Virus record (IMG/VR): IMGVR_UViG_3300012953_000012
Coordinates: 64,001-128,000 of that record
Direction: 5' to 3' (one strand)
Source of the DNA: a virus
Taxonomy: Duplodnaviria; Caudoviricetes
DNA length: 64,000 nt
Part shown: one piece after another, positions 24,330 to 25,577 of the stretch
Numbering within the stretch: position 1 is the stretch's first letter
Layout: each line of letters begins with the position of its first letter
Translations under genes and position numbers: made by a program
The notes under the pieces: generated by a model
The model's input: only the letters and a program-made list of their open reading frames with translations
Databases searched by the model: none
What the model was told of the DNA's origin: nothing

Positions 24330-25577
24330 ATGCCTGACCCCACTCCGAGTCAGATCCAGCAAGCCCAGTCCAACATCAGCAACCTGATGGACTGGATCAA
24401 CCATCTGCACAACTACGAGCAGGACGTGATCAACGAGGTCTACGACCAACTGACCGTGTCCTCGCAGCACGATCCGGGGCAGGACTTCATCACCGCGATG
24501 ATGGAGGGAACGCTCAAGAGCATCGGGGCACTCCCTTTCCCAGGTGCGGGGGTGATCGCAGGGTTCACCAGCGCCTTCTTCAGCGTCTACTCCAAGACCA
24601 CGCCGCCCAGCCTCAAGGCTCAGTTTGCCTCGGTGTGGGCACGCTTCAACGCGACTTTTCTCCAGGCCAACCAGGACCTGTCGGACATCTACGCCGACGT
24701 AGCGGGGCACTGGAACGACACCTACACCGACCCTTCGGGCACCGAGTACACCATCTCCCAGATGGGGACAGGCGTGATCAGCGTCCCAGCGGACACGGCA
24801 CCTGAGTACCAGACCATGACAGACACGGCTGTGGCTGCGTACCGGGTCAGCCTCACCAGGTCCCAGATCGGAGGCAAGTGGAAGGTCCTTCAAGACACCT
24901 GCGGCATGAACATGCCTGGCTGGGACGACACGGACGCGAAGAACTGGATCCCAGGCTTCGTGAAGGACCACCCCGCCTTCTACATCCGCTACAGCAGCAT
25001 CCCCGGTGCGTGTTGCACCCCAGGGTCCGAGCAGGTCTACGAGGACCTCATCGGGCAGAGCCAACCCAACGTCTTCAATGACGGAAGCCCTGCCCCTGCC
25101 TCCTTGATGGACTGGCTCTGCAAGACGGACCAGTTTGGCAACGTCACCAACGCCAATGGCCTGGTGACCCGAGATGAGTTGTTCAACGGATGGGACGGTG
25201 CCCTCAAGACAGAAGGCTACTGCATCCCTTCCCCTGCCCCTCCGGTCCCGGTGGCTGACCCCAGCGAGCAGGACCTACGGGACGCGAAGCGTTGGCACAG
25301 GTTGTTCAAGCGCCACAAGAGACGCCGCCTGGAGTGGGGTGTCGTGAAGCGAGCCTACTCGGACGGTGACTTCTTCCATGCGCTGATGCGTGACCCCAGG
25401 GACGCGCTGGCCGACCACCTGGGAGTACCTTTCCCGGCGGGAGCCACCGTCGAGATCATCCGGGAAGAGCCCGGTCAGTACAAGTTGGTCCTGCCCCTGG
25501 CGGGTATTGACTTCAAGAAGTTCAAGAAGCACAAGAAGGGCTGGCTCCAGCGCCTGTTGGGATGGATAAAGAGATGA
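24330..25577 (+). CDS. Helical-bundle protein with C-terminal NHLP-leader-like domain and cationic amphipathic tail
   Basis: GGAG RBS; VKRAYSDGDFFHALMRDPRDALADHLGVPFPAGATVEIIREEPGQYKLVLP matches nitrile-hydratase-like leader pattern. Confidence 0.65.
   Translation: MPDPTPSQIQQAQSNISNLMDWINHLHNYEQDVINEVYDQLTVSSQHDPGQDFITAMMEGTLKSIGALPFPGAGVIAGFTSAFFSVYSKTTPPSLKAQFASVWARFNATFLQANQDLSDIYADVAGHWNDTYTDPSGTEYTISQMGTGVISVPADTAPEYQTMTDTAVAAYRVSLTRSQIGGKWKVLQDTCGMNMPGWDDTDAKNWIPGFVKDHPAFYIRYSSIPGACCTPGSEQVYEDLIGQSQPNVFNDGSPAPASLMDWLCKTDQFGNVTNANGLVTRDELFNGWDGALKTEGYCIPSPAPPVPVADPSEQDLRDAKRWHRLFKRHKRRRLEWGVVKRAYSDGDFFHALMRDPRDALADHLGVPFPAGATVEIIREEPGQYKLVLPLAGIDFKKFKKHKKGWLQRLLGWIKR

Follow-up and report, generated by a model that had tools for sequence, protein, structure and literature searches.

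We analysed a 64,000-nucleotide stretch of phage DNA (the window), which corresponds to bases 64001-128000 of a 205,564-bp IMG/VR virus record (IMGVR_UViG_3300012953_000012) with a completeness of ~46% (CheckV), and we focused on one open reading frame (ORF) of this stretch, P0001 (24330-25577, plus strand). The window has a GC content of ~62% and encodes a Baseplate_J protein at 18056-21517 and, at 16772-18046, a sheath-initiator-like protein; because of these two proteins the source was assigned to the contractile-tailed giant phages, and it is an uncultured giant myovirus. No match was found for 10 kb of the sequence (megablast) or for P0001 (tblastn) among 50,697 phage records. An original prediction, made from the sequence alone, had described P0001 as a helical protein resembling domain I of the Cry toxins, ending in an NHLP domain of the kind that leads the precursors of ribosomally synthesised peptides that undergo modification after translation (RiPPs), and then in a cationic peptide.

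The gene and its modules

We found that the ORF is real: it encodes 415 aa followed by a stop codon, has a GGAG located 10 nt 5' of its ATG and shares its start with all homologues. The GC content at third codon positions (GC3) was 0.80. The gene is undescribed, phage-encoded and composite, as had been proposed. Three modules were recognised in the protein, namely an N-domain (residues 1-300), an NHLP-fold domain (the C-domain, residues 331-392) and a cationic Trp-rich tail (residues 393-415). The features of the gene are:

24330-25577, plus strand: the whole of P0001, 415 aa and stop codon
24330-25229, plus strand: N-domain, residues 1-300, a helical bundle with a beta subdomain, with no solved relative found
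24480-24596, plus strand: hydrophobic helix-turn-helix, residues 51-89, Gly/Ala/Ser-rich with a Pro-Gly break
25266-25319, plus strand: amphipathic helix of basic character, residues 313-330, running into the C-domain
25320-25505, plus strand: NHLP/nitrile-hydratase-alpha-like domain, residues 331-392, from profile and fold matches
25506-25574, plus strand: cationic Trp-rich C-terminal tail, residues 393-415, from net charge and homologue alignment

An NHLP-fold domain at the C-terminus

The NHLP leader model TIGR03793 (NCBIfam) matched residues 331-390 (25320-25499) with an E value of 3.2e-10 and 39.7 bits, a score that lies below the curated cut-off of the model (50.9). Pfam and PHROGs added no further match in P0001. 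A profile of 34 C-domain sequences (alignment A4) recovered nitrile hydratase alpha chains (E 7e-16 to 1e-9) and also the NHLP precursors 8tb1 (E 2e-13) and 9cjx (E 6e-9). The model of the C-domain comprised helices at residues 331-344, 346-354 and 356-364 and strands at 375-380 and 383-387. Foldseek related it to 9cjx and 8tb1 (probability 0.99 and 0.95, respectively) and VIA gave Z scores of 5.5 and 5.2, the Z of 5.5 being to 8tb1 over 66 aligned residues (rmsd 3.8). The same three-helix and two-strand fold has been described for the DprE2 and MprE leaders, in which the second strand ends at a Pro that is followed by a disordered linker to Gly-Gly (PMC12537861). The equivalent Pro of P0001, P389, was invariant in the C-domain alignment and G392 was near-invariant. 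The C-domain is a true homologue of the NHLP/nitrile-hydratase-alpha fold, and the predicted leader-like domain is genuine, in its unusual C-terminal place, by TIGR03793 as well as by the profile and fold matches (AlphaFold and Foldseek). The homology is of a known kind in a new place. The helix that leads into the domain contains the most amphipathic stretch of P0001 (residues 317-328, hydrophobic moment muH 1.02), and its W-x-x-L-F pattern was conserved in the C-domain alignment.

NHLP leaders are followed by a disordered linker that ends in Gly-Gly (or GA/GS), with hydrophobic residues at positions -4, -7 and -12 (PMC12537861). We detected no Gly-Gly site or leader linker after P389 in P0001, and positions 61-77 of the TIGR03793 model were left unmatched. 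Most of the homologues that combine the N-domain with an NHLP domain (N+NHLP) stop 2-6 residues past the domain or begin a second NHLP domain. A cleavage site had been conjectured at the LAG-ID junction between domain and tail; because P389 and G392 are conserved and homologues stop there (G392 is near-invariant also in those that end 2-6 residues later), this junction is better described as the structural end of the domain. The original prediction had also reported no RiPP maturase or C39 transporter in the window, and this held even for the whole 205-kb record (~46% complete), where we found no C39 peptidase, radical SAM or YcaO gene; a LanC search of the record was uninformative, as its control stayed silent. 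No maturase or C39 gene was found in five bacterial loci with homologues (L002, L003, L013, L016 and L017). Thus, P0001 fails the functional definition of a RiPP leader in its position, in the Gly-Gly site, in the core and in the maturase and C39 genes. The suggestion of a peptide-releasing effector was not borne out: G392 is structural also in the early-stopping homologues, there is no Gly-Gly, Cys, Ser and Thr are absent from the tail, and the searches above found neither a maturase nor C39.

In another locus, L019, we observed a 406-aa protein (P0071; L019:5001-6221) with four tandem NHLP-like repeats, located just downstream of radical SAM/SPASM genes (3591-4585). This protein may be a multi-leader RiPP precursor. 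NHLP-repeat proteins had been considered as proof that the fold is used outside RiPPs, and this argument was dropped because P0071, the one whose context could be read (the other contig being too short), adjoins radical SAM/SPASM genes. The repeat proteins recovered with the profile could thus be genuine RiPP precursors.

The N-domain and its hydrophobic hairpin

The first 305 residues were modelled with AlphaFold2 (AF2) on an alignment of 81 sequences (A2), with a pLDDT of 91.8 and a pTM of 0.86. This domain model, based on a deeper alignment, replaced an earlier full-length AF2 model in which the pLDDT was 71 and the hairpin was of low confidence. Helices were placed at residues 6-41, 51-67, 73-89, 102-122 and 158-180, and a beta subdomain at 185-297. 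A comparison with 48,161 PDB representatives in VIA-align reached a Z of no more than 5.5, and this only with unrelated helical hairpins, while the lowest E from a Foldseek search of the PDB was 0.16. The profile of the N-domain family returned five chance-level rows from all PDB sequences at E<=10, with no Cry protein among them, and P0001 and up to 81 members shared no Pfam, PHROG or PADLOC family for the N-domain. A DinB-like metal-binding bundle was considered and rejected, since the Foldseek rows were at chance level (E 0.05-0.4) and the His residues of the N-H-x-H motif were not conserved across the family. The residues that were near-invariant family-wide were N15, D48, G50, R105, L117, W128, P153, L263, R281 and F285.

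The likeness to domain I of Cry3A, which had been noted by eye, was reproduced neither in the sequence nor in the fold searches. P0001 had no match to Endotoxin_N (PF03945) at E<=1, and neither had any of the family members (0/81) at E<=0.01. The proposed AlphaFold and Foldseek comparison with Endotoxin_N, carried out with the model of pLDDT 91.8, listed no Cry structure in two fold searches; no Cry chain of the seven-helix Endotoxin_N fold was among the matches listed, and a family missing from such a list is not thereby excluded. P0001 has no Cry domains II and III, the remainder of the protein being the small beta subdomain, the NHLP-fold domain and the tail. An Endotoxin_N cluster appeared in a language-model search at 0.77, within the stated noise range of the tool. 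The Cry likeness remains a by-eye impression.

The hydrophobic stretch quoted in support of that likeness is present, at residues 64-88, and it belongs to a hairpin whose hydrophobicity was conserved over the 81 members. The two helices of the hairpin (51-67 and 73-89) contained 5-9% charged residues, compared to 17% overall, and 33-43% Gly, Ala and Ser. The hairpin was bordered by a conserved D-P-G and by P-P, and helices 1 and 4 were amphipathic. Each hairpin helix measured ~17 residues, and the highest mean Kyte-Doolittle value over 19 residues in P0001 was only 1.4. These two values speak less for a membrane-spanning hairpin than for a re-entrant one or for a buried core. When P0001 is set against the true transmembrane helix of a holin, it is again this Kyte-Doolittle maximum and helix length that were found, with lysis-type surroundings in relatives only.

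The cationic tail and other putative anchors

The last 26 residues of P0001 carry a net charge of +8, and the last 12 have a muH of 0.65. Residues 393-415 are rich in Lys, Arg and Trp. The cationic amphipathic peptide that had been reported at this end of the protein is therefore present as quoted with respect to its charge and its moment, but its amphipathicity was no better than that of shuffles of the same composition (1279/5000). The tail was restricted to eight close homologues and to P0019, in which its sequence is unrelated and its origin independent of the tail of the P0001 clade. Trp-rich cationic C-termini were found in no plausible gene of the 205-kb record other than P0001 and its downstream neighbour P0002.

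A divergent, AT-rich subfamily of N-domain proteins (P0059, P0070, P0083, P0097 and P0105) has Cys-rich basic N-termini instead (e.g. MGCCGN and MWCCSSRNRSK), which we take to resemble eukaryotic myristoylation and palmitoylation signals (MGC, GAP-43-type motifs). These proteins are probably from giant viruses or from their eukaryotic hosts. No signal peptide was detected in P0001 or in the members with N-terminal extensions that were examined (0/29), and therefore the protein would meet a membrane from the cytoplasmic side. We suggest that different lineages may have put different cytoplasmic-face membrane anchors on the same N-domain.

Family size, distribution and architectures

A word-indexed search recovered 13 full-length homologues of P0001 with 35-78% identity, while an exhaustive profile search recovered 3314 proteins at E<=1e-3, of which 64 were at E<=1e-30. 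The N-domain family is large and unannotated, and is found in phages, giant-virus-like sequences, sporadic bacteria and, distantly, fungi. We also observed an N-domain protein encoded on a GVMAG contig (L006). Among 301 Acidobacteriota genomes searched, one carried the N-domain (1/301), and a scan of the genome collection gave one locus. The architectures of 162 proteins (cluster representatives) were dissected with local hidden Markov models (HMMs), as follows:

N-domain and one NHLP domain: 37 proteins
N-domain and two NHLP domains: 4 proteins
Extension, N-domain and NHLP domain: 5 proteins
N-domain alone (<=360 aa): 32 proteins
N-domain in larger proteins without NHLP: 34 proteins
NHLP repeats only: 27 proteins

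The NHLP domain was thus C-terminal to an N-domain of ~300 residues in 46 of the tallied proteins. The modules added in the larger proteins were Tectonin, FG-GAP, other propellers and pentapeptide repeats; neighbours in the AlphaFold DB (AFDB) added Ricin B, VCBS, a chitinase and fungal DUF7872 entries, and those in the ESM Atlas were unnamed clusters (60-91% viral) plus Ascomycota clusters. Nothing relevant turned up in the literature on DUF7872 or on NHLP with bacteriophage. As far as these searches reach, the N-domain family and the N+NHLP architecture are undescribed.

Neighbouring genes and related loci

P0001 is followed by P0002 and a short ORF and preceded by a candidate promoter motif:

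25574-26584, plus strand: P0002, whose probable start is the ATG at 25574 by homologue alignment, overlapping the P0001 stop codon in an ATGA
26586-26720, plus strand: 44-aa ORF with a C-terminal hydrophobic segment, putatively coding, beginning 1 nt after the P0002 stop codon
24212-24223, plus strand: TAG-N5-CTAT motif, putatively a late promoter of the phage, located 118 nt upstream of the P0001 start codon

The three ORFs are tightly coupled, through the ATGA overlap and then the 1-nt gap. P0002 bears a Trp-rich amphipathic tail of its own, and the tails of its orthologues are variously amphipathic or absent. In the unannotated P0002 family (alignment A3), a D-x-E and several Glu and Cys residues are invariant, and there is an insert rich in Cys (C-G-C ... 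C-x-C-P-x-T-P-Y-C). We found no Pfam match in its members and no PDB sequence match with its family profile; the neighbours in the language-model search were GTA TIM-barrel-like (0.92) and GH18 (0.84). P0002 is a candidate TIM-barrel glycosidase-like protein on this language-model lead only. A prediction of the P0001 and P0002 complex, run without controls, scored 0.00, which speaks neither for nor against binding. No homologue of the 44-aa ORF was found in the related loci.

The surroundings of P0001 and of its homologues were as follows:

Window: P0001, P0002 and the 44-aa ORF, set between minus-strand blocks
L012: P0001 homologue, P0002 homologue and a PG_binding_1 protein
L009: P0001 homologue, P0002 homologue and a transmembrane/coiled-coil protein
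L011: an extra 171-aa gene between the members of the pair
L008: an unrelated 229-aa gene after the homologue, and a PG_binding_1+GH25 gene 3.5 kb downstream
L004/L005 (28% identity): a PG_binding_1+CHAP gene immediately upstream, divergent
L007: P0002 homologue, a two-transmembrane protein and a PG_binding_1 protein, with P0001 cleanly deleted

The PG_binding_1 module of these relatives resembles that of the phiKZ gp144-type endolysins. The link of the pair to wall-degrading genes is suggestive. In bacteria, one N+NHLP homologue (L017:3567-7403; GCA_001758795.1) has as its two neighbours a PG_binding_1+YkuD L,D-transpeptidase on one side and an Asp/Glu racemase on the other, a placement that may be a cell-wall link or chance.

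The deletion in L007, a 180-kb contig of a related phage, was examined by aligning L007:5001-5999 with positions 24339-26463 of the window. It spans 1126 bp (window 24434-25559) and leaves only the first 35 codons of P0001, together with P0002. P0001 is thus dispensable, and P0002 can do without it. The cassette of L007, with P0002 retained, also sits in genomic surroundings different from those in the window, so that the pair behaves as a movable module.

Counting both strands, we found 16 exact copies of the TAG-N5-CTAT motif in the window, where shuffles gave an expectation of 0.67. The motif is located ahead of genes and frequently forms a palindrome (ATAG...CTAT). Copies include those at 5667, 13598 (minus strand), 16837, 24212, 34711, 35388, 39986, 43282 (minus strand), 44635, 47579, 48017 and 51343, and the copy at 16837 lies at the start of the baseplate/sheath-initiator gene. 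The motif is consistent with a late expression of P0001, its promoter function being proposed from its copy number and positions. Searching for late-gene support, we found no PDB sequence match for three genes downstream of other copies, and a scan of 23900-27000 for sigma-70 promoters and terminators found none.

Finally, two genes between the baseplate block and P0001 were annotated. The first encodes a HAD_SAK_1 protein (RNA-repair-type HAD; 21514-22482), translationally coupled to the baseplate J gene, and it is followed on the opposite strand by a GIY-YIG nuclease gene (22427-22843, minus strand).

Interpretation

A membrane-directed role of P0001 is plausible. Our preferred explanation, which we hold tentatively and at somewhat less than an even chance, is that P0001 is a dispensable, probably late, host-membrane accessory of a small envelope-disruption (lysis-associated) cassette. 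P0001 would act at the host cytoplasmic membrane, where the tail, as a peripheral membrane-targeting helix, would carry the N-domain to the inner leaflet. The short conserved hairpin would then dip into the bilayer, where it would be a re-entrant (monotopic) anchor or else would permeabilise the membrane, and this would help the neighbouring wall-acting enzymes to reach or weaken the envelope. The NHLP-fold domain would serve as a protein-docking or latch module, with a partner or with the N-domain as its target, rather than as a RiPP leader. The main argument for this explanation is the variety of anchors: because lineages appear to have attached different ones to the same N-domain, the N-domain would work at the membrane. 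Further points in its favour are the module boundaries and homology, the family-wide conservation of the charge-poor hairpin between amphipathic helices, the lack of a signal peptide, the confinement of the tails to P0001 and P0002, the PG_binding_1 genes near the pair in relatives, the tight coupling of the three ORFs, the promoter-like motif and, for dispensability, the deletion in L007.

Several observations weigh against this explanation. The hairpin could simply be buried as the core of a soluble domain, no relative of the N-domain is characterised, and its membrane activity is a prediction from sequence and model. The tail is no more amphipathic than its shuffles, and the enzymatic nature of P0002 is that of a language-model lead only. 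The endolysin neighbourhood comes from perhaps two independent lineages and could be inherited synteny, and no PG_binding_1 gene was found in the phage's own 205-kb record (~46% complete). In the five bacterial loci the N+NHLP homologue stands alone among housekeeping genes, contexts that fit a lysis factor poorly and suggest a more general cellular function. The promoter-like motif, lastly, is 118 nt distant from the start codon.

The bacterial contexts would be better accommodated by the main rival, to which we assign a lower and altogether minor probability: P0001 could be an interfacial enzyme or ligand-binding protein acting on the membrane or on envelope precursors (lipid-linked glycans, peptidoglycan precursors or lipids), which would remodel the host envelope with no lysis, the tail and the NHLP-fold domain serving only to localise or regulate it. 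N15, D48, R105, R281 and W128, near-invariant in the whole family, argue for this possibility, together with the many more invariant polar residues of the N+NHLP clade, including an N-H-x-H-x-Y-x-Q-D stretch. It would also agree with the bacterial copy beside the L,D-transpeptidase and the Asp/Glu racemase, with the lectin-like and propeller modules that occur in fusions (Tectonin, FG-GAP/VCBS, Ricin B and BNR) and with the weak fold echoes of DinB-type metal-binding bundles. However, those echoes are at chance level, the His motif is not kept across the wider family, and no enzyme family was matched in the sequence or fold searches.

We consider it quite unlikely that P0001 is a virion-borne or ejected protein, carried in or on the tail, that breaches or marks the membrane at infection. 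Its gene lies 2.8 kb past the baseplate J/sheath-initiator block and shares the TAG-N5-CTAT motif with it, one AFDB structural neighbour is named 'minor tail protein', and the lectin and propeller fusions recall receptor-binding proteins. Nevertheless, the HAD-family gene, the GIY-YIG gene and a 302-aa gene that matched no family intervene before P0001, the last two on the opposite strand; the AFDB name covers the whole entry and not the matched part; and both the clean deletion in L007 and the homologues in bacterial housekeeping contexts speak against a structural role.

The effector of the original prediction, in the form of a secreted or released Cry-like pore-forming toxin directed against other cells, appears very improbable. 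A hydrophobic hairpin within amphipathic helices is the general plan of the colicin- and Cry-type alpha-pore formers, and bacterial relatives carry lectin fusions, but beyond the noise-range language-model hit there was no Endotoxin_N signal in any sequence search and no Cry or other pore-former among the fold matches listed for the high-confidence model, and the protein has no signal peptide, no Cry domains II and III and no conserved adjacent immunity-like gene.

Least credible of all is a RiPP-like precursor, whose NHLP domain would recruit an enzyme or protease encoded elsewhere so that the tail is set free as a peptide of 23 residues that kills microbes or disrupts the outer membrane: the NHLP homology is real and a short cationic peptide directly follows it, the same profile finds the four-repeat protein beside radical SAM/SPASM genes, i.e. 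true RiPP loci, and the use of cationic amphipathic peptides by phages in lysis is shown by phiKT gp28 (bioRxiv 10.1101/515445), but the tail replaces the disordered linker, with no L(X)4L-to-Gly-Gly segment (cf. PMC12537861), it lacks Cys, Ser and Thr, most N+NHLP homologues end 2-6 residues past the domain or carry a second NHLP, and neither the record nor the five bacterial loci yielded C39, radical SAM or YcaO genes.

Beyond the preferred explanation of P0001 as a membrane accessory, we give a small chance to a wider proposal, in which the N-domain would be a new class of monotopic membrane-inserting module, distributed over phages, giant viruses, fungi and a few bacteria, and controlled by the NHLP fold, which is known only as a RiPP leader and would serve here as an autonomous docking or latch domain. 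If this were true, the N+NHLP proteins would reveal the source from which NHLP leaders were recruited, and phages would have a new holin-independent route to breach or prime the cytoplasmic membrane. If P0001 does act on membranes, it would be a new part for the poorly known lysis systems of giant phages. NHLP domains, which are treated as leaders of peptide natural products, recur C-terminally in a large unannotated family with no RiPP machinery nearby, and genome-mining tools that flag NHLP as RiPP precursors will mis-call N+NHLP genes. Given its confident fold, which matched no solved structure, and its frequency in uncultured phages, the N-domain is well suited to structural and functional study.

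Comparison with known systems

P0001 shares with the NHLP RiPP precursors (TIGR03793; 8tb1 and 9cjx, the latter being DprE2) sequence homology and the same fold, ending at the conserved Pro. It differs from them in that the domain, rather than opening a short precursor, is found at residues 331-392 of a protein of 415 aa, in its score below the cut-off, and in that no Gly-Gly linker, Cys/Ser/Thr core, maturase or C39 exporter was found. With the nitrile hydratase alpha chain (PF02979) it has in common only the non-catalytic helical and strand segment, the metal-binding half being absent from P0001.

The nearest structural and language-model neighbours of the N-domain are DUF7872 proteins from fungi and phage clusters in the ESM Atlas and AFDB that carry no annotation. 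The Atlas clusters near the N-domain have 270 members (91% viral) and 52 members, and AFDB models matched it with E values down to 1e-24. The link to DUF7872 itself is weak (Foldseek E ~3e-2, probability 0.98, TM-score 0.46), with no HMM match in the 81 members and a language-model score of 0.94 to a cluster in which only 10% of the members carry DUF7872. The idea of a hydrophobic helical hairpin among amphipathic helices is common to P0001, Cry domain I (PF03945) and the colicin type, but P0001 has no sequence or fold match to these, has a beta subdomain and has hairpin helices of ~17 residues.

The tail can be compared to the phiKT gp28 disruptin and to the amphipathic C-termini of some Gram-negative endolysins, which are likewise short, strongly cationic and helix-prone and occur among lysis-type genes. 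The gp28 of phiKT is a free 56-aa peptide with shown outer-membrane activity, whereas in P0001 the peptide follows as a tail on a protein of 392 residues, and no site for its release is evident. In their style, though with no sequence homology, the tails of P0001 and P0002 recall the C-terminal membrane-targeting sequences of MinD and FtsA, which we take to consist of a basic cluster and then a short amphipathic helix; in this phage, the same tail device is found on two neighbouring proteins.

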